Positions 12,664 to 60,352 of a stretch of DNA of 64,000 nucleotides are shown piece by piece; within the stretch, counting starts at the first letter, position 1, and each line of letters opens with the position of its first letter. A program made the position numbers and the translations under genes. The stretch is taken from positions 2,336,001 through 2,400,000 of the forward strand of contig CAVUAK010000001.1 of assembly GCA_963739455.1 (NCBI GenBank). The letters run 5' to 3'. The stretch comes from an uncultured Gemmatimonadales bacterium. Its GTDB lineage: Bacteria > Gemmatimonadota > Gemmatimonadetes > Gemmatimonadales > GWC2-71-9. The notes beneath the pieces are model-generated. The model saw nothing but the letters and a program-made list of their open reading frames with translations, was not told where the DNA came from and did no database searches.

Positions 12664-12755
12664 GAGTCGGCAGTCGGCAGTCGGCAGTCGTCAGGGAGTG
12701 AGCAGTCATCAGCCGACGACTTTCTGCCGACTGCCGACAGACGACTGCCGACTGC
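12664..12755. repeat. Inverted pair of 7-bp arrays (CAGTCGG/CAGTCGT arm then CCGACTG arm)
   Basis: gagtcggcagtcggcagtcggcagtcgtcag...ccgactgccgacagacgactgccgactgc. Confidence 0.85.
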
Positions 12756-12812: not shown

Positions 12813-12901
12813 GGACAGGTGGCCGAGTGGCTCAAGGCGCACGCCTGGAAAGTGTGTATACGGCTCAAACCGTATCGAGGGTTCGAATCCCTCCCTGTCC
12901 G
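12813..12901 (+). tRNA. tRNA-Ser(GGA)
   Basis: Acceptor GGACAGG/CCTGTCC, anticodon arm CACGC-ctGGAaa-GTGTG, long variable arm, GGTTCGAATCC T-loop; CCA not encoded. Confidence 0.97.
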
Positions 12902-14490: not shown

Positions 14491-14576
14491 GCAGTCGGCA
14501 GTCGTCGACGTAAGTCGACAGTCGTGAGCTGATTCGCCGATGGCTGACGACTCCCTGACGACTGCCGACTGACGAC
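14491..14576. repeat. Inverted pair of 7-bp CAGTCGK arrays between esterase and ATP-grasp genes
   Basis: gcagtcggcagtcgtcgac..gtcgacagtcgtgag..ctgacgactccctgacgactgccgactgacgac. Confidence 0.85.
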
Positions 14577-15552: not shown

Positions 15553-16914
15553 GTGACGCCCGAGCTCGGGGACGCGATCGCGCGCTATCACGATGGCCTG
15601 ACGCCGGCACTCGCGGAAGAGTCGGAGGCGTGGCTGTCGGCGCGACTGGCCGACCGGAAGATGATGTTCGGGTCGCGCCCGCTCTGCACGGTGGTGCGCC
15701 CGCGCTTCCTGACGCGTGACGCCTACCGGCAGATCCAGCAGGCGGGTGCGGCCATCGGCCGGGCGTTCACGCGGGCGCACGAGGCGGCGATGGCGCGTCC
15801 CGACGTGCTGGCGCAGTTCCGGCTCACCGACTGGGAAAAGACGCTGCTGGGCGATGATGACGGCCTGCCGGTGCCGAGTCCGCTGGGCCGCTACGATGCG
15901 TTCTTCGCGGAAGACGGGGCGGGGCTCAAGTTCACCGAGAACAACGCGGAGACGCCGGCTGGCTCGGCGTATGGTGACGTGCTGAGCGAGTTGTTCCTGG
16001 CACTGCCGGGGCTCAAGCCGTTCCGCCGGCACTACGATGTGCGCTCCCTGCCGAGCCGGCCGTCGGTGCTGCAGACACTGCTGGAATGTTTCCATGCGGC
16101 GACGGGGCGGCGCGACCTGCCGGTGATCGGGATCATCGACTGGCACGAGGTACCGACGCAGAGCGAGTTCCAGGCATTCAAGGCGTGGTTCGAGTCGCTC
16201 GGCTTCACGTGCGTGATCGCCGACCCACGCGAGCTGGAGTACAGCGGCGGGAAGCTCCGGGCCGGCGGCACGGTGATCGACCTGATCTACAAGCGGGTGC
16301 TGATCCACGAGCTGGTGGGGCGCGAGGGGATGGATCACCCGATGGTGCGGGCGGTGCGGGAGCGGGCGGTGGTGATGGTGAACCCGTTCCGCTGCAAGGT
16401 GCTCCACAAGAAGGCGAGCCTGGCGGTGCTGAGCGACGAGCGGAACGCGGCGCTGTTCGATGCACCGATGCAGCAGGCGATCGCGGCGCACATTCCGTGG
16501 ACGCGGGTGGTGGAAGCGCGGACGACGACGTGGCGGGGCAAGGACGTGGACCTGCTGGACCATGTCGCGCGGCATCGCGCGCAGTTCGTGCTGAAGCCGA
16601 ACGACGACTACGGCGGCACGGGGATCGTGCTCGGCTGGGAAGTCGATGACGCGGTATGGGCGCGGGCGCTCGCGGCCGCGATCGAGGCGCCGTCGGTGGT
16701 GCAGGAGCGAATTCACCAGCCGAGCGAGGCTTTTGGGGCCTGGATCGATGGTGAACTAGTCGTCAGTGACAGGATCGTGGACACGGCACCGTACGTCTTT
16801 GGTGGTGCCTATGTTGATGGATGCCTTAGCAGGATCTCCACGGCTGCGTTGGTCAATGTCACCGCGGGCGGTGGGAGCACGATTCCTACTTTTGTCGTTG
16901 AGAGTCGGCAGTAG
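15553..16914 (+). CDS. Circularly permuted ATP-grasp (type 2 / Gsp-synthetase-like) ligase
   Basis: GRYDAF..KFTENNAETPAG, IDLIYKRVL, VLKPNDDYGGTGIVLG, VVQE, LVNVTAGGG. Confidence 0.85.
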   Translation: MTPELGDAIARYHDGLTPALAEESEAWLSARLADRKMMFGSRPLCTVVRPRFLTRDAYRQIQQAGAAIGRAFTRAHEAAMARPDVLAQFRLTDWEKTLLGDDDGLPVPSPLGRYDAFFAEDGAGLKFTENNAETPAGSAYGDVLSELFLALPGLKPFRRHYDVRSLPSRPSVLQTLLECFHAATGRRDLPVIGIIDWHEVPTQSEFQAFKAWFESLGFTCVIADPRELEYSGGKLRAGGTVIDLIYKRVLIHELVGREGMDHPMVRAVRERAVVMVNPFRCKVLHKKASLAVLSDERNAALFDAPMQQAIAAHIPWTRVVEARTTTWRGKDVDLLDHVARHRAQFVLKPNDDYGGTGIVLGWEVDDAVWARALAAAIEAPSVVQERIHQPSEAFGAWIDGELVVSDRIVDTAPYVFGGAYVDGCLSRISTAALVNVTAGGGSTIPTFVVESRQ

Positions 16915-16980
16915 GGTCGTCAGTCGGCAGAGGGTCGTCAGTCGTCAGTCGTCAGTCGTCAGTGAGTCGACAGTCGTCAG
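16902..16980 (+). repeat. 7-bp CAGTCGT/CAGTCGG array, left arm flanking the four-helix-bundle gene
   Basis: gagtcggcagtagggtcgtcagtcggcagagggtcgtcagtcgtcagtcgtcagtcgtcagtgagtcgacagtcgtcag. Confidence 0.9.
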
Positions 16981-17344
16981 CTGCCCGGTGAGAGTGATTG
17001 GTTCCGTGCGAGGGCGTGCAGCATCCGGCTGATTTCGTCGATCCGCTGGTCCATCAGTTGATGGTCAGATTGGCTGATGAGGTCGAGCTCTCGCGCAATG
17101 TAGCACTTGGGCACGGAGTTCGTGCAGCGAGCCTCGCGCAATGAGGATGAAGCGCTGGAATTCGGCCGGGGTGCCACGGCCGGAGCCCTCAGCGATATTT
17201 GAGACGACGGATACGGCGGCACGGCGGCACTGGGCGGTAAGACCAAACATCTCGCCTCGCGGGAAGCGTGCCAGTGACCCGATACAACTCCACGACCATT
17301 CGAGTCGAGAGTTGCCAGACCTTCAGGCGGCGGAAATCTCCCAT
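16977..17344 (-). CDS. Four-helix-bundle protein (23S rRNA IVS protein / bAvd-like family; two frameshifts)
   Basis: MGDFRRLKVWQ..LYRVT..P..EMFGLTAQCRRAAVSVVSNIAEGSGR..EFQRFILIARGSLHEL..QV..IARELDLI..EISRML, the family signature. Confidence 0.9.
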
Positions 17345-17410
17345 GGGGCACAGTAGCGAACGGAACGATCGCAGTGCACACCGGGGGGCCGCTATGCGGT
17401 GCCTTTTCTC

Positions 17411-17457
17411 GCGACTCACGACTCTCTCACGACTGACGACTGTCGACTGCCGACTCC
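17411..17457 (-). repeat. 7-bp array, right arm (reverse complement of the left arm)
   Basis: gcgactcacgactctctcacgactgacgactgtcgactgccgactcc. Confidence 0.9.
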
Positions 17458-17458
17458 C

Positions 17459-18579
17459 ATGAAACCACCATCGCTGACCATCGGCATCGAAGAGGAATAC
17501 CAGATCATCGATCCCGACACCCGGGAGCTCAAGAGCTACATCACGGAGATCCTGAAGGAAGACTCCATGGTGCTGGGCGAGGTGAAGCCGGAACTGCACC
17601 AGTCGATGGTGGAGGTGGGCACGAAGGTGTGCCACACGCCGGCCGAGGTGCGGGCGGAACTGGTCCGGCTCCGCGGCCTGGTGATGGGGCTCGCGGGGAA
17701 GAACGGCCTGCGTATCGCCGCGGCCGGGACGCACCCGTTCTCGTCGTGGATGACGCAGGAGATCACGCCGCTCGAGCGCTATGCCGGCGTGCAGGAGGAC
17801 ATGCAGGACCTGGCGCAGCAGCTGCTGATCTTCGGCACGCACGTCCACATCGGCATCGAGGACCGGGAGTTCCTGATCGACTGCATGAACGTGGTGCGCT
17901 ACATGCTGCCGCACGTGCTGGCGCTGTCGACGAGCTCGCCGTTCTGGCTGGGGCGGCAAACGGGGCTGAAGTCGTACCGGAGCGTCGTCTTCCGGAACTT
18001 CCCGCGCACCGGGCTTCCGCCCACGATGGAGTCGTGGAACGAGTTCTCCACGCTGGTGGACGGGATGGTCAGCACCAACTGCATCCCGAACGCGTCCAAG
18101 ATCTGGTGGGACGTGCGGCCGAGCTGGAGCTACCCGACGCTCGAGTTCCGCATCTGCGACGTGTGCACGCGGGTGGACGAGGCGGTGTGCATCGCGGCCA
18201 TCTTCCAGGCGATCATCGCCAAGCTGTGGAAGCTGCGGCGCGACAACATGACGTTCCGGCAGTACGGCGCCGGCGCTCATCGAGGAGAACAAGTGGCGCG
18301 CGGTGCGCTACGGCCTCGACGGCAAGCTGATCGACTTCGGGCAGCAGCGCGGAACTGCCGGCGCGCGACCTGATCCGCGAGCTGATCGAGTGGTTCATCG
18401 GCGACGTGGTGGACGAGCTGGGATCGCGGAAGGAAGTGGAGTACGCGTACAAGATCCTGGCGGAGGGGACGAGCGCCGACCGGCAGCTGCGGACGTTCCA
18501 GCAGACGGGGAACCTGCACTCGGTGGTGGACCAGCTGATCGCGGAGACGGAAGAAGGAGTCGTGAGTCGTCAGTCGTGA
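17459..18579 (+). CDS. ybdK: Carboxylate-amine ligase YbdK / GCS2 (glutamate--cysteine ligase-like; frameshifted at 3' end)
   Basis: [71 protein letters not shown]. Confidence 0.9.
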
Positions 18580-18604
18580 GTCGTGAGTCAGTCGTCAGTC
18601 GTCA
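18557..18604 (+). repeat. 7-bp GAGTCGT/CAGTCGT array overlapping the ybdK stop
   Basis: gagtcgtgagtcgtcagtcgtgagtcgtgagtcagtcgtcagtcgtcac. Confidence 0.85.
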
Positions 18605-26872: not shown

Positions 26873-28643
26873 ATGAACGTCGTCTCGCGTGCACCCATCG
26901 GGTTCATGATTGCCCTCCTCGCGACGAGCGTGGTGGCGGGCTGCAAGGGGAAGGCCGCTGATACCACTGCTGCACCGGCCGAAAGCGTGGCAGCGCCCGA
27001 CACGGCGCAGGCGCAGGTGGCCGAAGCGCCGCCGGCATCGGTGGATGAGCTGGTGGCCCCGATCGCGCTGTATCCCGACCAGTTGCTCGGCCAGATCCTG
27101 ACCATCTCGACCACGCCGCAGGAGGTGCTGGACGTCGGCAACTGGATCCTCGCGAACCAGAGCCTGGAGGGCGATGCGCTCTCGGGCGCCGCGAAGACGG
27201 CGGGCTTCACGCCGAGCGCGCAGTATCTCGTGAGCTTCCCGGCGGTGGTGGACAACATGTGCCAGGAGCTGGACTGGACGACGCAACTGGGCGAGGCGTT
27301 CACGTCCAACCAGCAGGGCGTGATGGACGCGGTGCAGCGGAAGCGGCAGCAGGCACAGCAGAGCGGAAACCTGGTGTCGAGCCCGCAGATGCAGGTGTCG
27401 ACGAAGCAGGCGTCGAATGGTGATGCCTACATCGAGATCGCGCCGGGCAACCCGAAGGTGGTCTACGTTCCCCAGTACGACCCGGTGACGGTGTACGTCA
27501 CCGCTCCGCCGGCTACCACGACGACGACCACGACGACGGTACAGAAGTCGGGGGTGAGCACCGGTGCCGCGGTCGGGATCGGCCTGCTGTCGTTCGGGGT
27601 GGGCATGGCGGTGGGTTCAGCGATCAACAACAACAACAACTACTACCCGTATCCGTCATGGGGCTATGGGAGCATGTACTATGGCGGGCGGCCGTACTAT
27701 CCGCCGCCGTACCGGCCGCCGGTGTATCCGGGCTACCGTCCGGTGTATGGGTACAATCCGCCGCCCAACTACCGGTATCACAACACGAACGTGACGATCA
27801 ACAACAACGACTACTACAACCGGTTCAACAACAACAACCGGCCGAACGGCAACAACAATCGTCCGAATGGCAACAACAACCGTCCGGGGAACAACAACAA
27901 CCGCCCGGGCAACAACGGCAACCTGGCGAACAACAACAATCGTCCGGCCGGGGAACGGAACGGCAACCGGCCCGGCAACGGCGAACGACAATCGTCCCGG
28001 CAACAACAACCGGCCCGGTGCCGGTGCGGCGCCCAACGGGACATACAATGGCGCCCGGCCCAAGACGGGTGACCAGCGCCCGGGCGCCGGGATGGCGAAC
28101 GCGAACCCGAACGGGCCTGCCGGGAAGGGGCCGGGGAACCAGATGGCGTCGCGCGACAACCCGCGTCCGACTCCAGGTGGCGCCGGAAACGCGGCACGAC
28201 CTGGTGGTGCGGCCGCGGCGGGTACGCGCGACATGAGCCGCCCGACGGGTGGTGGAAACCGGCCGACCACGGGAGCACAGCCGGTGGATCGGGGATATGG
28301 GGACGCCCGGCCCTCGACGGGTGCCGCGAATGCGAGCCGTCCGTCGCCAGGCGCGGCGAAGCCGACGCGGCCGTCAACGGGAGCCGCTACCGCCAGTCGG
28401 CCTGGGACAGCTGCTGCGCCGAGCCGTCCCGCGGCCAAGCCGCAGCCGGCGAGTCGTCCTGCGCCGCAGCCGCAGAGTCGTCCGGCGCCCCAGAAGCAGG
28501 GAGGCGGCGCCTATGGTGGCGGCGGGGGTGGCGGTGGGAACAGTGCGCGCGCGGCGAGCAGCCGCGGGAAGGCCAGCATGGGCGGAAGCAGTGGCGGTGG
28601 CGGTGGTGGTGCGAGTGCACGTGGCGCGGGGAGGGCTCGCTGA
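26873..28643 (+). CDS. DUF3300 family lipoprotein with Asn/Pro/Gly-rich tail, copy 1 (frameshift ~27985)
   Basis: Lipobox VAGC; LVAPIALYPDQLLGQIL, LDWTTQLGEAF, VVYVPQYDP. Confidence 0.85.
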
Positions 28644-29542
28644 TGTCACATACAACTGAACGGCGCGCGCGGGTGTCCGGTGCCGCGCTCCTGATGATGC
28701 TCTGCCTGGGCTGTGGGGACCGCACGCCGGCACCGGTTGCAACGGGCGCCGGATGAGGGTGCGCGGACCTATGCCACGACGGACGAGGCGGTGGCGGCGT
28801 TCATCAAGGCGTCGAGGGATGGCAGCGTCCCGGAATTGCTGGCGATCCTGGGGCCGGGGAGCGAGGACATCATTTCCTCGGGCGATACGATCGCGGACGC
28901 AAAGGAGCGCGCCTGGTTCGTGGCGCGGTTCGACTCGACCCATACGCTGGTCGAGTCGGCTCCCGACCAGCTGACGCTCGACGTGGGTGCGGACGACTGG
29001 CCGCTTGCCGATCCCGCTGACGCGGGTGGACGGCAAGTGGCACTGGGATGGAGCGGCGGGACGGCAGGAGATCGTCTTCCGCCGGATCGGGCACAACGAG
29101 CTGGGTGCAATCCAGGCGTGTCGTGGAGTGGTGGCGGCACAGCAGGACTACGCGGCCGTGCCACATGATCGCCAGAAGGCCGGCAGCTACGCCGCGCGGA
29201 TTGTGAGCCAGCCGGGCAAGCAGGATGGGTTGTACTGGGCGACGAACGATGGCGCAACGCCGAGTCCCCTGGGGCCGTTCATGGCGCAGGCGGGGGGCGA
29301 AGGGTACGACACGACGGGAGTACAGACGCCGTACCACGGCTACTACTACCGCATGCTGCCGAATCCGGATGGCTTCGGGCTCGTCGCATATCCCGGCCGA
29401 CTATCGCGCGAGCGGTGTGATGACGTTCCTCGTGGACCAGACGGGCGTGGTGTACCAGAAGGACCTGGGCGAGGAGACGGGCACGCTGGCGCAGGCGATG
29501 ACGGGGTTTGCGGTGGACTCGACGTGGACCGTGGTTGAGTAG
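28643..29542 (+). CDS. DUF2950 family protein, copy 1 (frameshifted)
   Basis: EAVAAF..ILGPG..SSGD.IAD..VGADDWPLPIPL..RRIGHNEL..QDGLYW..PYHGYYYR..YRASGVMTF..VYQKDLG. Confidence 0.85.
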
Positions 29543-29543
29543 G

Positions 29544-29572
29544 AACTGCGGGAACAGGGAACAGGGAACAGG
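29544..29572 (+). repeat. AACTGC leader + GGGAACA array
   Basis: tag-gaactgcgggaacagggaacagggaacagg. Confidence 0.8.
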
Positions 29573-29602
29573 AGGCCGGCCCGCAGAAATGCGGCCGGCC
29601 TC
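29572..29602. terminator. Hairpin between convergent genes
   Basis: GAGGCCGGCC(c)GCA-gaaa-TGCGGCCGGCCTC. Confidence 0.6.
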
Positions 29603-29613
29603 GTTCGCGCCCC

Positions 29614-30042
29614 TTACTTCATGCCGAAGACAGTGACGTCGGCCTTTCCCTTGAGGATGCCCTTGGTGTCATACCAGAAGTCGATGCGCCGGATGTGGCG
29701 GGTGCCGGAGCCCTTGAGGTCGATGACGCGGCTTTCGCCGCCCTCGGGAATGTTCTGGCGCACGTCGATGTTGTCGGGCTGGCCGTTGGCATAGGTGACG
29801 ACCATGCGCTGCATGTTGAGCGGCGCATCGGTGACCTTGAACTTGAGCTTGCGAAAGGTGTCGTACGGTCCCTTGACGACGATTGCGTCGTGGTCGGCGC
29901 CGTGATCGGCGTGGGTCTGGCCGATGAGGCGCCAGGTGCCTGGGGCGCCAGGGCGGGGCTGGGTGACCTGCTGTGCGGTGAGCGTGCCCGCGCCGAGCGT
30001 GATGGCGGCCATCGCTGCAATAAGGATCTTTGATTGCTTCAC
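29614..30042 (-). CDS. Small secreted beta-rich protein (DUF2541/YaaI-like)
   Basis: Signal peptide; WRLIG..DHDAI..FRKLKFKV..MVVTYANG..SRVIDL.G..RHIRRIDFWY. Confidence 0.65.
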   Translation of the reverse strand: MKQSKILIAAMAAITLGAGTLTAQQVTQPRPGAPGTWRLIGQTHADHGADHDAIVVKGPYDTFRKLKFKVTDAPLNMQRMVVTYANGQPDNIDVRQNIPEGGESRVIDLKGSGTRHIRRIDFWYDTKGILKGKADVTVFGMK

Positions 30043-30117
30043 GTCATCTCTCCGGGAATGTCCTGTGCGCAGGAAGCTACGGAGAGGCGGGGTGCGGGGT
30101 ATTGAACGATGGGAGTA

Positions 30118-30146
30118 CAGGGAACAGGGAATAGGAAACAGGGGAC
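30118..30146 (+). repeat. GGGAACA-family array
   Basis: cagggaacagggaataggaaacagggg. Confidence 0.65.
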
Positions 30147-30210
30147 TGTGACCTTGCGGGAACGCTGTAGCAGGAGCTAGAAAGAGACAGCAACAAACGG
30201 GAGCACTCCG

Positions 30211-31702
30211 ATGACATTTGTGACAGGCACCGGCCGCATGCGAGTCATGATGACAGGACTCGTGGCGGTGAGCGTGCTTTCGACGGGCACCTTGCGAGCG
30301 CAGGATGCGGCAGCACCGCAGGTGGCGGTGGCGGCTGCGACGCCAACAACACCGGTGACCCTCGCCGACCTGGTGGCGCCGATTGCGCTCTATCCCGACC
30401 AGCTGCTGGGCCAGGTGCTGATGATCTCGTCCACACCGCAGGAGGTGCTGGACCTGGGCAACTGGCTGATCGAGAACGACACGCTGACCGGCAGCAAGGC
30501 GCAGGATGCCGCGAAGGCAGCGGGCTTCTCCACCAGTGCGCAGTACCTGGCGCTGTTTCCCCAGGTGGTGGACAACATGGCCCAGCAGATCGACTGGACC
30601 ACGCAGCTGGGTGATGCCTTCACCGACAAGCCGAAGGACGTGATGGCGGCGATCCAGACGAAGCGGGAGGCGGCGGTGAAGGCGGGCAACCTCAAGACCA
30701 GCTCGCAGATGACGGTGGAGACAAAGAAGGCCGATAACGGCACCTCCTACATCTCGATCTCACCGACTGATCCGAAGGTGATCTACGTGCCGGTGTACAA
30801 CCCGGTCAACGTGTACGTCACCAACCCGACGCCGGCACCGGCCGCGGCACCGACGACCACGACGACGACCACCACGACAGCCAGCTCGGGGGTGAGCAGC
30901 GGTGCGGCCGTGGGCATTGGACTGCTGTCGTTCGGTGTGGGGATGGCGGTGGGAGCCTCGATCAACAACAACTACTACCCGTACCCGATGTGGGGCTATG
31001 GCGGGATGTACTACGGTGGGCGTCCCTACTATCCGCCGCCGTACCGCCCGCCGTACTACCCGGGATACCACCCGGCGTACGGGTACCATCCGCCGGCGAA
31101 CTATCACTGGAACCAGGTGAACCGGCAGACGAACATCACGGTGAACAACAACAACTATTACAACAAGGTCAACACCAACCCGCGGAAGCCGTCGGGGAAC
31201 AACAATCGTCCCGGGCAGATAGCTGGCGGCAACCGTCCGGGCGGCGGCGGGGGCGGTGAATACAAGGGTGCGCGTCCCAGCACCAACGATCGTCCGGGGG
31301 CCGGCAACAACCGGCCGGGCGGGAACGACCGTCCTGGCGCGGGGAATGACCGGCCCGGCGGGAATGATCGTCCGGGTGCGGGGAACAGCAGGCCGGGCGG
31401 GAACGATCGACCGGCCACGGCGAACGCGGGTGGCGCCGCTACCCGTCCGGGCGGTGGCGGTGGGCGGGTGATCGCGGCTACGGCGGTGGTGCGGGCGGGG
31501 CGCAAACCGTGCCGCGCCGGCGAAGGCAGCCGCACCGGCGAACCGCAGCGGTGGTGCGTTCGGTTCCTCGGGTGGCGGGAGCGGAAGCAGTGCGCGCGCT
31601 GCCAGCGATCGCGGGCGGGCAAGCGCCGGCCCGGCTCATGGTGGTGGTGGAGGGGGCGGTGGCAACCGCGGCGGTGGTGGTGGTGGCGGGAGGAAGCGGT
31701 GA
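30211..31702 (+). CDS. DUF3300 family protein, copy 2 (frameshift in Gly-rich tail)
   Basis: LVAPIALYPDQLLGQVL; GIGLLSFGVGMAVG; NDRPG repeats; TGATG overlap with next gene. Confidence 0.85.
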
Positions 31703-38979: not shown

Positions 38980-39102
38980 GTCAGTCGGACAGTCGACTGT
39001 CGACAGTGAGTCGTGAGCCAGCAATCACTGAGAAGCGGCCTCCGTCATCACGGGGCCCTCTGTTTTCTGTCGACTCTCTGCCGACTGCCGACTGCCGACT
39101 GC
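38980..39102. repeat. Inverted CAGTCGK arrays around a terminator-like hairpin (39038-39058) between convergent genes
   Basis: gtcagtcggacagtcgac..cagtgagtcgtgag..GGCCtCCGT-catc-ACGGGGCC..ctgccgactgccgactgccgactgc. Confidence 0.8.
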
Positions 39103-41641: not shown

Positions 41642-42523
41642 GTGGCGGGTGAGGGACGGAAGGACCAGGCGGGACGAGGGCGGGGGCCACGGCGACCGGC
41701 GAAGACCGGGATCGCCAAGGGACCGGCTGAGCCGTCACGCCCCAAGTCGGCAGGGCGGAAGCCACCGAAGCGGCTGGCGGAGAAGCCGGCCTCCGCGGAG
41801 ATGCGGGTGCAGCGGGCACTGGCGCAGGCGGGCGTTGCTTCCCGGCGTCAGGGCGAGGAGCTGATCAAGGCGGGGAAGGTGCGGATCGACGGGAAGGTCG
41901 CGGAACTTGGCAGCAAGGTGAATCCGTCGAAGCAGAAGATCACGGTGAACGGGCGGGTGGTGAAGGCGGTGGAGAAGCGGTGGCTGGCCTTCCACAAACC
42001 GCTGGGCGTGGTGACGACGGCAGATGACGAGCAGGGCCGTCAGACGGTATTCGACCTGATCCCGAATCATGCCGGGCTGACGTACGTAGGGCGTCTAGAC
42101 GTCATGACGACGGGGCTGCTGCTGCTCACGACCGATGGCGAAGCGGTGCACCGGCTGACGCACCCGAAGTATCATATTCAGAGGAAGTACACGGCACTGG
42201 TGCATGGGCGGTCCACCGCCGAGCTGACCGGTGCGTTGAAGGAGAACGTGGTGCTCGATGGCCGGCCGGTGATCCCGCGGGATGTGCGGGTACGCCCGGG
42301 GAAGGATGGCCGCAGCATCATCGACGTGACGTTCGAGGAAGGGCGAAACCGGCTGGTGCGGCGTTGGTGCGAGGAGCTGGGGCTCAAGGTGGAGCGACTG
42401 GCGCGGCTGAGCTACGGGCCGGTGCGGCTGGGGGACCTGCCGCCGGGGCGGTACCGGCCGTTGACGCCAGTTGAAGAGAAGGATTTGTACAGGGCGATAC
42501 ATCTAGATAGTGGGCAGTCGTGA
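41642..42523 (+). CDS. rluB: rRNA pseudouridine synthase (RluB/RsuA family, S4 domain)
   Basis: RVQRALAQAGVASRR, HKPLGV, VGRLD..TTGLLLLTTDG, EGRNRLVRR. Confidence 0.9.
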   Translation: MAGEGRKDQAGRGRGPRRPAKTGIAKGPAEPSRPKSAGRKPPKRLAEKPASAEMRVQRALAQAGVASRRQGEELIKAGKVRIDGKVAELGSKVNPSKQKITVNGRVVKAVEKRWLAFHKPLGVVTTADDEQGRQTVFDLIPNHAGLTYVGRLDVMTTGLLLLTTDGEAVHRLTHPKYHIQRKYTALVHGRSTAELTGALKENVVLDGRPVIPRDVRVRPGKDGRSIIDVTFEEGRNRLVRRWCEELGLKVERLARLSYGPVRLGDLPPGRYRPLTPVEEKDLYRAIHLDSGQS

Positions 42524-42660
42524 GTCGGCAGTCGACAGTGAGTCGTCAGTTGAGAGTCCAGAGTTGAGAGTTCAGAGTTCAGAGTTCAGAGTTCAGAGTT
42601 CAGAGTTCAGAGTTCAGAGTTCAGAGTTCAGAGTTGAGAGTTGAGAGTTCAGAGTTGAGA
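42515..42660 (+). repeat. CAGTCGK array followed by 15 tandem GAGTT(C/G)A heptamers (42554-42658)
   Basis: Nine consecutive perfect GAGTTCA units at 42568-42630; array runs into the moxR RBS. Confidence 0.95.
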
Positions 42661-42668
42661 GGAATTAC

Positions 42669-43691: not shown

Positions 43692-43788
43692 CCGCGTGAG
43701 GGGTGAGGGGTGAGGGGGGCGCTCCGACCAGCTTCGCCCCCGCTCAAGTTGCGCGACCTCTCTCACCCCTCTCCCCTTACCCTCACCA
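43690..43788. repeat. AACCGC leader + GTGAGGG array with inverted CCCTCAC arm
   Basis: taaccgcgtgaggggtgaggggtgagggg..ctctcacccctctccccttaccctcacc. Confidence 0.75.
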
Positions 43789-50380: not shown

Positions 50381-52139
50381 GTGACCCTTCCCACGACAAC
50401 AACGCGCCGAATTGCCATCCTGCCCGATGCGGTCGCAGACCAGATCGCGGCGGGCGAGGTGGTGGAGCGCCCAGCATCGGTGGTGAAGGAGCTGGTGGAG
50501 AACAGCATCGATGCCGGCGCGCGGCACGTGCGGGTGGAGATCGAGACCGGCGGGAAGACGCTGGTGAAGGTGAGTGACGACGGCAGCGGCATGGGCCGCG
50601 ATGACGCGGTGCTGGCGCTCGACCGTCATGCCACGAGCAAGATCACGAGTGCGGCGGAACTGGTGGGAATCGCGACCTTCGGTTTTCGCGGTGAGGCACT
50701 CCCCGCCATTGCATCGGTGTCCCGATTCTCGCTCTCCACCGCGGACCAGGATGGCGCGGGCGTCGAGGTGACGGTCAATGGCGGGCGCATGGAGCGGGTG
50801 GACCCCATCGCACGCCAGCGCGGCACGACCATCTCGGTGCGCACCCTCTTCTTCAATACGCCGGCACGGCGGAAGTTCCTGCGCTCCACCTCGAGCGAGA
50901 CGCGGGCGTGTCACGAGGCGGTGCTCACGCTGGCGCTGGCGCACCCGGGAGTCGGCTTCGAGTTCCATGCGGACCAGGTGAACCGGTTCCACGCGCCGGC
51001 GGGGCAGTCGCTCGCCGAGCGGCTGCGGACGACGTGGGGTCGCGAGCTGTCGGAGACGCTGATCCCGGTGGAGTTCGCGGCGGGCGGGTTCCGGGTGCAT
51101 GGATTCGCGCAGCGTCCCGCTGATGCGCGACCCACGGGGCGGCGCACACAGCTGTTCGTGAATGGCCGGCCGTTCCGGGACAACTTCCTGGTGCGCGCGG
51201 CGGAGGCGGGATATCGCTCGGCGATTCACCCGGGCGACCGTCCGTCGCTGTACCTGGACGTTCAGGTGCAGCCGGGTGACGTGGACGTGAACGTGCACCC
51301 GGCGAAGCTGGAGGTGCGGTTCCGGGACCGGATCGGGATCGAGCGGGTGGTGGAGGATGGGGTGAGGCATGCGTTGGGGTCGCTTGTCCGCGGCGGCTGG
51401 AAGTGCTGGAGGAGTCGGCAGTCGGCAGTCCACAGTCGACAGGGAGTCGGCAGTCAGTCGGCCAATCGGGGCTGTGGCCAGCTGTCGACTCACGACTCAC
51501 TGCCGACTCACGACTGACGACTGACGACTCGATCCGCCGACTCGCCGGACTCCCGGCCTTCATTCGCGAACATCCCCGTCACCCAGATGTTCGACACCTA
51601 CCTCGTGTACGCATCAGACACCGGCATTGTCATCGTGGACCAGCACTCGGCGCATGAGCGGGTGCTGTACGAGGAAGTGCTGAAGCAGCTCGCCGGGGAC
51701 CGGGGGAGCGCACAGCACCTGCTGATCCCGGTGACGATCGAGCTGACCGATGAAGAGCTGGACGCGGTGGAGTCGTACCGCGACGTGCTGGACCAGATCG
51801 GCTTCGAGGCGGTGCCGTTCGGCGGGCGCACGGTGGCGCTCAATGCGGTGCCGAACCCGCACCCGAAGTTCGATGCGGCGCGCTGCTTCCGGGAAATGGT
51901 GGCCGACCTGGCGCGAGGGCGTTTCGGTGGGTGGCACAACCGGCTGGAACGGTTCGCGGCGACGTATGCGTGTCGCGCGGCAGTGATGGCAGGGGACAAG
52001 CTGAGCGAGCGGGAGATCCGGGAGCTGCTGCTGCGACTGTTCGCGACGACAGTTGCCGCCGCACGATGTGCATGGACGGTCGACGATCGTGCAGCTGCCG
52101 GTGGAGGAGCTCGAACGGCGGTTCGGGAGGAGGAACTGA
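50381..52139 (+). CDS. mutL: DNA mismatch repair endonuclease MutL (frameshifted; repeat element in linker)
   Basis: IAAGEVVERPASVVKELVENSIDAG, RHATSKI, TFGFRGEAL, VDVNVHPAK; DQHSAHERVLYE, ACR, DVHGR. Confidence 0.95.
51412..51530. repeat. Inverted CAGTCGK/CGACTGA heptamer element inside mutL
   Basis: gagtcggcagtcggcagtccacagtcgacagggagtcggcagtc..ctgtcgactcacgactcactgccgactcacgactgacgactgacgactc. Confidence 0.9.
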
Positions 52140-60299: not shown

Positions 60300-60352
60300 G
60301 CAGTTGAGTCTGCAGTCGGCAGTCGTCAGTCGTCAGTGAGTCGTCAGTCGTG
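60299..60352 (+). repeat. CAGTCGT array after the NlpC/P60 stop
   Basis: gcagttgagtctgcagtcggcagtcgtcagtcgtcagtgagtcgtcagtcgtg. Confidence 0.85.

Follow-up and report, generated by a model that had tools for sequence, protein, structure and literature searches.

What is a small antisense gene doing between two co-oriented neighbours, and why should it be enclosed by inverted arrays of a heptamer? The question is raised by one junction in a 64,000-nucleotide stretch of the genome of an uncultured Gemmatimonadales bacterium (contig CAVUAK010000001.1, positions 2,336,001 to 2,400,000; hereafter the window), where a four-helix-bundle (FHB) gene of the family PF05635/TIGR02436 lies antisense between an ATP-grasp-like gene and ybdK, with inverted heptamer arms outside it. 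We compared this genome (G000, an assembly about 84% complete) with 30 relatives, 31 genomes in all. Inverted arms proved to be the usual packaging of FHB genes, and dispersed copies of a repeat unit are abundant mostly where the matching cassette is present, although exceptions exist. Our preferred reading, to which we assign a probability of roughly 0.5, is that the FHB gene serves as the master gene for a selfish family of repeats that lacks a transposase, and that a predicted ring of its protein binds the dispersed arms and helps them to spread. The junction has the following parts.

15553..16914, plus strand: host upstream gene, ATP-grasp-like, an open reading frame (ORF) whose last codons and TAG come from the left arm
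16903..16983, plus strand: left arm, a G-rich AGTCG(G/T/A)(C/G) array with a 4-nt insert, recognized from its sequence
16977..17344, minus strand: FHB gene of about 121 codons, PF05635/TIGR02436, with two +1 indels in the G000 assembly
17345..17409, minus strand: FHB leader, in which a -10-like hexamer (17350-17355) precedes the ATG by 5 nt and a Shine-Dalgarno sequence is lacking
17410..17457, minus strand: right arm, read on the minus strand as four units, AGAG and two units, ending just before the ybdK ATG
17459..18579, plus strand: host ybdK, a carboxylate-amine ligase whose identity is confirmed by profile matches

An earlier note on this DNA, made from the letters alone, had described the antisense gene between inverted arms at this junction, and the anatomy is as it stated, except that the FHB frame is split by the two indels. 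The array is likewise real; the unit, which the note had written as CAGTCGK, is AGTCG(G/T/A)(C/G) (hereafter the AGTCG unit), with the insert after the fourth unit. As for the flanking genes, ybdK was named correctly, whereas the proposed CP-ATP-grasp identity has only a sub-threshold match to PF14403 (20.2 bits against a cut-off of 32). The left arm starts within the final codons of the upstream gene and provides its TAG at 16912-16914; orthologues of this gene terminate in a GCATGA-type overlap or a short spacer. The FHB stop codon, TGA on the minus strand, falls within the last unit of the same arm. The right arm is the reverse complement of the left-arm repeat type and has an identical layout in the cassettes of G000, G003 and G008. 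The cassette sits between two protein genes, not in an rRNA gene, and Rfam gave no match to it.

The FHB gene is spread over three frames in the G000 assembly, with the +1 indels near 17270 and 17105, and its orthologues in G003 and G008 are unbroken. One-base indels private to this assembly number 33 in 29.5 kb, so assembly error is plausible for the frame breaks; the two indels are probably of this kind, real decay being the alternative. The ybdK gene of G000 carries extra bases near 18270 and 18345 that are absent from relatives, and a single arm extends over its 3′ end.

Association of FHB genes with inverted arms extends well beyond this junction. In G000, all five FHB genes have inverted arms, each of a different 7-, 8- or 9-nt unit, and a custom profile search of the 84% assembly found no sixth gene. 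We collected 153 FHB loci from the 30 relatives plus an 80-locus scan across phyla, of which 139 are distinct with full flanks. An inverted-flank score of at least 20 is reached by 117 of the 139, compared with 44 of 1,500 swapped flanks and 7 of 139 loci scored in direct orientation. Inverted arms flank just 4 of 956 size-matched host genes (codon-based gene calls), and thus the enrichment that the earlier note had proposed to look for is found, FHB genes being repeat-flanked far more often than other genes. The G-richer arm comes first in 102 of the 117 armed loci, and the arm period is 7 in 72 and 8 in 36 of them; 5′ and 3′ arms show no length bias (46/39/32). In a tree of 95 FHB proteins, unit and unit length track clades, although kin share unit labels and this agreement is therefore not proof of co-evolution. 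One clade (L027, L029, L034, L064, L065, L068 and L187) has long, near-perfect, non-periodic inverted arms with no tandem units.

The protein itself belongs securely to this family. The G003 orthologue scores 122.7 bits against PF05635 (cut-off 33.8) and 112.8 bits against TIGR02436 (cut-off 24), and the middle piece of the split G000 gene matches PF05635 with an E value of 2.3e-19 (71.1 bits). The same orthologue falls under the cut-offs of both models for Avd, the accessory protein of diversity-generating retroelements (DGRs), with 35.6 of 80 bits and 34.5 of 40 bits. Its predicted structure (predicted local distance difference test score 93) has four long helices, with a template-modelling (TM) score of 0.92 to Xcc0516 (2GSC) and 0.76 to Avd. 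Both 2GSC and 2RLD contain five chains, and by analogy the FHB protein may form a homopentameric ring. The ratio of non-synonymous to synonymous substitution rates (dN/dS) is 0.04-0.31 across 10 orthologue pairs and 0.15 between the intact cassette-site orthologues of G003 and G008; the gene is under purifying selection.

Upstream of the coding sequence, a -10-like A..T pattern lies 4-7 nt before 55 of 64 Gemmatimonadales FHB starts, which were chosen by position, compared with 228 of 1,385 host genes. Shine-Dalgarno-like words show the opposite trend, preceding 3 of the 64 FHB starts and 429 of the 1,385 host genes. These patterns hint that FHB genes may be expressed leaderless, and the FHB leader at the junction studied here is likely to be a leaderless promoter.

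Presence and absence of the cassette at orthologous loci, a comparison suggested by the earlier note, separates three filled genomes from nine empty relatives. The upstream gene could be matched in 11 of the 30 relatives, one of them filled (G003), nine empty and one (G013) without ybdK at this place. The G008 site is also filled, although its contig ends within the left arm, which brings the filled genomes to three (G000, G003 and G008); none of the more distant relatives that we examined has the cassette. In G001, G010, G015 and G025, the upstream gene and ybdK overlap at ATGA. A tree of three host proteins groups G003 with the empty G001 (Shimodaira-Hasegawa approximate likelihood ratio test 98), and the DNA site patterns are mosaic. 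We considered homing with a co-converted flank when G003 seemed nearer to G000 upstream of the cassette, but the site patterns do not support it, having no local excess (8 versus 10 and 5 versus 9 next to the cassette; 608/582/385 in total). At an orthologous site of G003, a cassette that is half deleted, with the promoter and first half lost, links filled and empty forms and shows what would be one route from the former to the latter.

Other cassette junctions, named by eye from their flanks, also hold cassettes whose units are different or have drifted between genomes. These are mutM/purD (L001, L044 and L046), coaE (L002, L042, L024, L028 and L038, with the G001 cassette in the opposite direction) and pdxA (L005, L039, L091, L093, L095 and L182).

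Could the arms act in RNA? The earlier note had expected them to pair as an imperfect stem of about 45 bp, and folding bears this out. The segment 16895-17465 folds at -257.8 kcal/mol (z -3.38), with none of 100 shuffles as good, and the two arms folded alone are predicted to give a 39-bp imperfect duplex in four helices (-71.9 kcal/mol). Such a stable predicted stem suits an mRNA intervening sequence (IVS), wherein the arms pair in the transcript, RNase III frees the FHB segment and splits the operon message, and empty pairs serve as processing or stability hairpins. The Coxiella burnetii IVS provides a precedent, with the same protein family, heptamers, a 28-bp terminal stem and RNase III excision (PMC4990558). 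Moreover, the downstream gene is oriented towards FHB in 36 of the 38 cases that are clear (24 more are not), as this explanation would have it. However, convergent genes flank 15 of 38 cassettes, an arrangement in which a single message probably does not span both arms, and the spread of the arms is left unexplained. In view also of the pairing and strand results below, we regard the mRNA IVS as quite unlikely.

Dispersed copies were counted as overlapping pattern matches in the 31 genomes. The AGTCG unit has 137, 116 and 26 matches in the three filled genomes and none in 21 genomes. Elsewhere there are 15 and 7 matches in two genomes whose cassettes have a related unit, 40 and 5 in two incomplete genomes in which no cassette was found, and 1 in three. 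AGTCG arms of at least three units number 112 in G000, whereas the reversed genome and the complemented genome each have 0. Other units are distributed in a similar manner, though not without exceptions. GTRAACR has 118, 114 and 97 matches in three carriers, 35 and 15 in non-carriers and 0 in G000; GACGTGAR has 97, 19, 96 and 208 in four carriers, 14 and 1 in non-carriers and 0 in 25 genomes; and GTGAGGG has 47 in G000 and 10 in G009, which has no matching cassette. In five Acidobacteriota, the prevailing form, 7-mer or 8-mer, is that of the genome's own cassette rather than the other (22 versus 0 in one; 17, 47, 61 and 4 versus 1, 2, 0 and 0 in the rest). Their dispersed copies are mostly facing pairs, which would also be in keeping with RNA hairpins of the mRNA IVS kind. 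At window position 43696, four genomes carry four units, each equal to that of the genome's own pdxA-site cassette. In GGGAATC arrays, empty pairs are nested or adjacent at L254, L256 and L257, with no gene between the outer arms.

These counts can be set against the possibility that FHB is a passenger. Arrays would then arise from slippage or gene conversion, or from an unrelated enzyme acting in trans, FHB would merely ride along, and strand-biased deletion or mutation would leave one arm. Cassettes without dispersed families, and families for which no cassette was found, speak for this explanation. It leaves unexplained why FHB is the sole short gene found between arms in G000 and why the switch from 7-mer to 8-mer is common to cassette and genome. 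As for an enzyme in trans, six genomes (84-99% complete) yielded no RVT_1 reverse transcriptase domain (PF00078, 0/6) and no Y1 transposase (PF01797, 0/6), other enzyme classes not having been searched; this agrees, within that range, with the suggestion in the earlier note that the cassette may be transposase-less. The note had also called FHB a cargo of the repeats. This label is not supported, because FHB is the only short gene found so enclosed in G000 and each arm family tends toward its own FHB, and thus the gene looks like a partner of the repeats.

The geometry of the arms argues further about their origin. We mapped 247 G000 arms in eight families defined by regular expressions. Of the 247, 92 have a sense stop codon no more than 25 nt from their outer end, and 25 have an antisense start at such a distance. 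In AGTCG arms the 4-nt insert follows four units in 44 of 68 cases, three units in 17 and five units in none. The variant strings of these arms are as diverse as shuffles (33 distinct of 38, compared with 34.1), double-variant units are nearly absent and adjacent units are mildly correlated (p 3e-5). Slippage would give the last of these features, but the insert after exactly four units and the near absence of double-variant units remain unexplained if FHB is a passenger, which we hold to be doubtful overall. An outer-end motif, AAC(A/T/C)GC, occurs in two families (11 of 25 and 13 of 39 arms) and in 2 of 133 arms of the AGTCG family.

A facing partner is present for 71 of the 247 arms (0 of 247 on the control side), and the other 176 are single. 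Partner arms do not covary, with a complementarity of 0.499 compared with 0.500 for non-partners, and are in register in 7 of 41 cases compared with 27.7% when permuted; G-U and A-C combinations number 2 and 3, few cases in all. Both the partnerless majority and the lack of added complementarity between partners run counter to an mRNA IVS. Given the fixed geometry, unlinked variants and absence of covariation, arms cannot be described as clones of a master or as copies of one another. They appear instead to share a grammar, as binding sites do.

The empty forms that the earlier note had located elsewhere in the window are indeed gene-less arm pairs, and these are scattered through the genome. 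In the window, pairs and single arms occur at these places.

12665..12755, no strand assigned: empty facing pair of the AGTCG family, found by pattern search
14491..14576: empty facing pair of the AGTCG family, also in G003 and not in G001, where the genes overlap
18557..18604, plus strand: single AGTCG arm at the ybdK 3′ end
38982..39102, no strand assigned: facing pair round a retained terminator-like hairpin, between convergent genes
42509..42661, plus strand: composite single arm, an AGTCG array followed by an AGTT(C/G)AG array
51413..51542, no strand assigned: empty facing pair of the AGTCG family
60307..60351, plus strand: single AGTCG arm

At the ybdK 3′ end, G008 has an arm of the AGTCG family, G003 one of another family, and G001 and G006 an ATGA overlap. 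The site at 38982..39102 has arms of four different units in five genomes and none in G010. Between G000 and G003, 10 junctions are occupied in both, 24 in neither and none discordantly, and about 5 of 14 shared sites differ in unit (judged by eye). The different units at shared sites, the composite arms and the site at 38982 together point to overwriting at occupied sites.

The strand on which arms lie is strongly constrained. With local GC skew measured at third codon positions, the G-rich strand of single arms is on the locally G-rich strand in 157 of 176 cases, and in 46 of 47 for the AGTCG family, whereas random 21-mers with an equal G-C excess are concordant in 57-64%. The rule is independent of gene direction (35 of 42 and 55 of 67) and was seen again in sampled windows of G006 (36 of 45); standard two-replichore chromosomes offered few single arms. 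The density of single arms increases with skew and climbs toward skew flips (17, 47 and 115 per Mb; rho 0.52 over 142 bins). Among paired arms, the skew-concordant arm is longer in 20 and shorter in 11, with 20 ties or cases of weak skew, and this bias towards the longer arm is a point for the passenger explanation. The rule acts at the DNA level, whatever the shape of the skew profile means. That single arms obey it irrespective of gene direction goes against an mRNA IVS. Indeed, the mRNA-processing proposal of the earlier note is weakened by the 176 partnerless arms, the absence of covariation and single arms that follow skew and not transcription, and on this evidence a selfish repeat system at the DNA level is favoured over an element processed by RNase III.

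The skew profile itself is a sawtooth. In G000 (contig C1), sharp plus-to-minus flips lie near 77 kb, 779 kb, 1.486 Mb and 2.459 Mb, and in G006 (contig C7) near 0.98, 1.92, 2.70 and 3.41 Mb. The flips are 0.7-1.0 Mb apart, three are at homologous places in the two genomes and one is about 100 kb from dnaA; no gene is common to them. Its shape is like that of a fork-direction profile in which forks meet at several fixed points. For Gemmatimonadota, a single terminus has been described (PMC11237797).

Strong polarity and a density that rises toward the flips are also what sites serving the host might show. Polar chromosome signals such as KOPS and Chi are known, and arms could be signals of that sort, or post-transcriptional control sites read by FHB, kept for host benefit. 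Consistent with this possibility, the occupied junctions of G000 and G003 are identical despite the differences in unit, FHB is under purifying selection, and a post-transcriptional role has been proposed for TAACTGA repeats (PMC4679880). However, at least five families occur together, with turnover between close relatives, FHB has no match in 7 of the 31 genomes, and equally close relatives share few arm sites (1 of 9, 2 of 10 and 1 of 8). Arms also lie in frame within 15 of 27 kinase loops, each different. A host-serving origin therefore seems unlikely.

These kinase genes form a cluster at 91-305 kb of contig C1 of G000. In 15 of the 27 Ser/Thr kinase genes, in-frame inserts of 13-24 codons precede L(F/Y)YVM, where the others have 5 codons, and the inserts are nearly all made of arms, mostly unlike each other.

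If FHB is the master gene of a selfish repeat family, as we prefer, the cycle might run as follows. FHB would be expressed from its own leaderless promoter within the right arm. An Xcc0516-like pentameric ring would bind the G-rich arm in single-stranded form, with each subunit crevice taking up one unit, and this mode of binding would explain a fixed geometry with interchangeable unit variants. For Avd, all five protomers are reported to take part in RNA binding, the bases sitting in crevices between subunits (10.1101/2023.10.23.563531). While the host replicates or repairs its DNA, bound strands would be protected, or annealed, where single-stranded gaps occur; host enzymes would place them in gene junctions by copying or conversion, in many cases over older arms. 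Copies would persist where they do little harm: directly behind a stop codon, directly ahead of a start codon, or within a protein loop that tolerates them. In host mRNA, pairing of the arms would leave the antisense FHB gene in a loop, making the filled form tolerable inside an operon; the hairpin would be a by-product, not the engine.

Several observations weigh against this reading. Comparison with empty sites reveals no target-site duplication or exact cut site, the relatives being only 80-90% identical. GTGAGGG has 53 matches in G006 (97% complete), none of whose three cassettes matches; G007 and G009 have 40 and 35 unit matches without a matching cassette, in assemblies 60-64% complete; and the GGGAACA family of G000 has no cassette in its 84% assembly. 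Conversely, three complete chromosomes have a cassette, yet strict patterns detect almost no dispersed copies in them. When GGGAATC arms spaced 440-470 nt apart were sought without regard to protein content, FHB was present in just 2 of the 7 stretches found. Counts of units and cassettes are not independent, as kin share both. The facing of FHB and its downstream gene is a transcription-linked rule, which our preferred reading explains by selection alone. No catalytic site is known in the FHB protein, and the reading calls on host enzymes that it does not name. We infer binding, oligomeric state, expression and movement, and because the sawtooth is unusual, local skew is an assumed mark of fork direction.

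How does the cassette relate to known systems? It resembles the 23S rRNA IVS of Coxiella burnetii and Leptospira, which has the same protein family, complementary ends that loop out the ORF and tandem heptamers upstream (PMC4990558). In contrast to that IVS, the G000 cassette lies between protein genes, antisense to its host, with a likely promoter of its own and under purifying selection, and it accompanies a genome-wide arm family; the Coxiella ORF is reported as probably unexpressed and decaying (PMC4990558). Dispersed heptamer arrays are shared with Xanthomonas, Nostoc and Beggiatoaceae (PMC4692102, PMC4679880). The GGGAATC arrays of Xanthomonas and GGGGAYT arrays of Nostoc prefer four units and form convergent pairs, with the G-rich strand right after stop codons or antisense ahead of start codons (PMC4692102). 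A repeat-binding protein has been suggested as the mobile part for the TAACTGA repeats of Beggiatoaceae (PMC4679880). The main text of PMC4692102 does not mention XCC0516, and that of PMC4679880 contains neither helix bundle, S23 nor intervening. The G-quadruplex idea for heptamer repeats cannot apply to the AGTCG unit because it has no G3 tract.

In systems of repetitive extragenic palindromes (REPs and REPINs) and their associated transposases (RAYTs), a protein gene is flanked by its own repeats, empty inverted pairs are scattered and several families occupy one genome. The cassette is alike in that its unit is also dispersed as facing pairs, with exceptions, and differs in the absence of an HUH Y1 transposase from the six genomes searched, in a protein without a known catalytic site and in arms that are tandem arrays of mixed variants, not clonal palindromes. 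Insertion sequences and miniature inverted-repeat transposable elements (MITEs) would be expected to leave target-site duplications and clonal arms, neither of which is seen. An integron cassette was rejected on anatomy; attC sites are not inverted halves around an ORF. Avd, an RNA-binding pentamer (10.1101/2023.10.23.563531, PMC10053308), has the same fold (TM 0.76), but the DGR to which it belongs is set apart by the Avd cut-offs that FHB misses and by the absence of a reverse transcriptase from the same six genomes. Because defining features of IVS, REP-RAYT, DGR and MITE are lacking, we file the cassette under none of them. PMC8700078 only lists FHB genes, and no paper linking heptamer arrays to FHB genes was found in a literature search of main texts in which subscription papers are under-represented. 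In that literature the two halves appear separately, as the heptamers of the Coxiella IVS and the arrays of Xanthomonas, and their link does not.

Some features of the surroundings are recorded here for completeness. A tRNA-Ser gene at 12813-12901 of the window lies between an empty pair and a GACGTGAR arm. Window positions 27500-31450 contain Asn-rich coding repeats of 21 and 39 nt, in genes with duplicated homologues in G001 and G008. Third-position GC is 0.52-0.72 over the last 75 codons of the upstream gene (window 16690-16900) in both filled genomes; such AT-rich third positions are not general, the difference being non-significant beside arms (61 versus 854 genes) and giving p 0.14 for 36 cassettes.

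The association joins two old unknowns, namely a large protein family without a known function and the heptamer arrays that have been described in Xanthomonas, Nostoc and Beggiatoaceae without a cause. Each FHB protein gains a predicted ligand, its own arm, which opens its function to direct testing, and a single genome offers natural specificity pairs. By rewriting gene ends, breaking translational overlaps and adding peptides to kinase loops, arms shape operons and proteins. A broader proposal, which we put forward tentatively as a possibility, is that a widespread class of selfish DNA, lacking any enzyme of its own, has PF05635 rings as its dedicated factor, each ring reading its own 7-9-nt unit as a single strand while host replication or repair writes and overwrites the arms unit by unit with the polarity of the fork. 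If this is true, such rings would explain much of the bacterial excess of heptamers, and the 23S rRNA IVS would be one landing site of this element.

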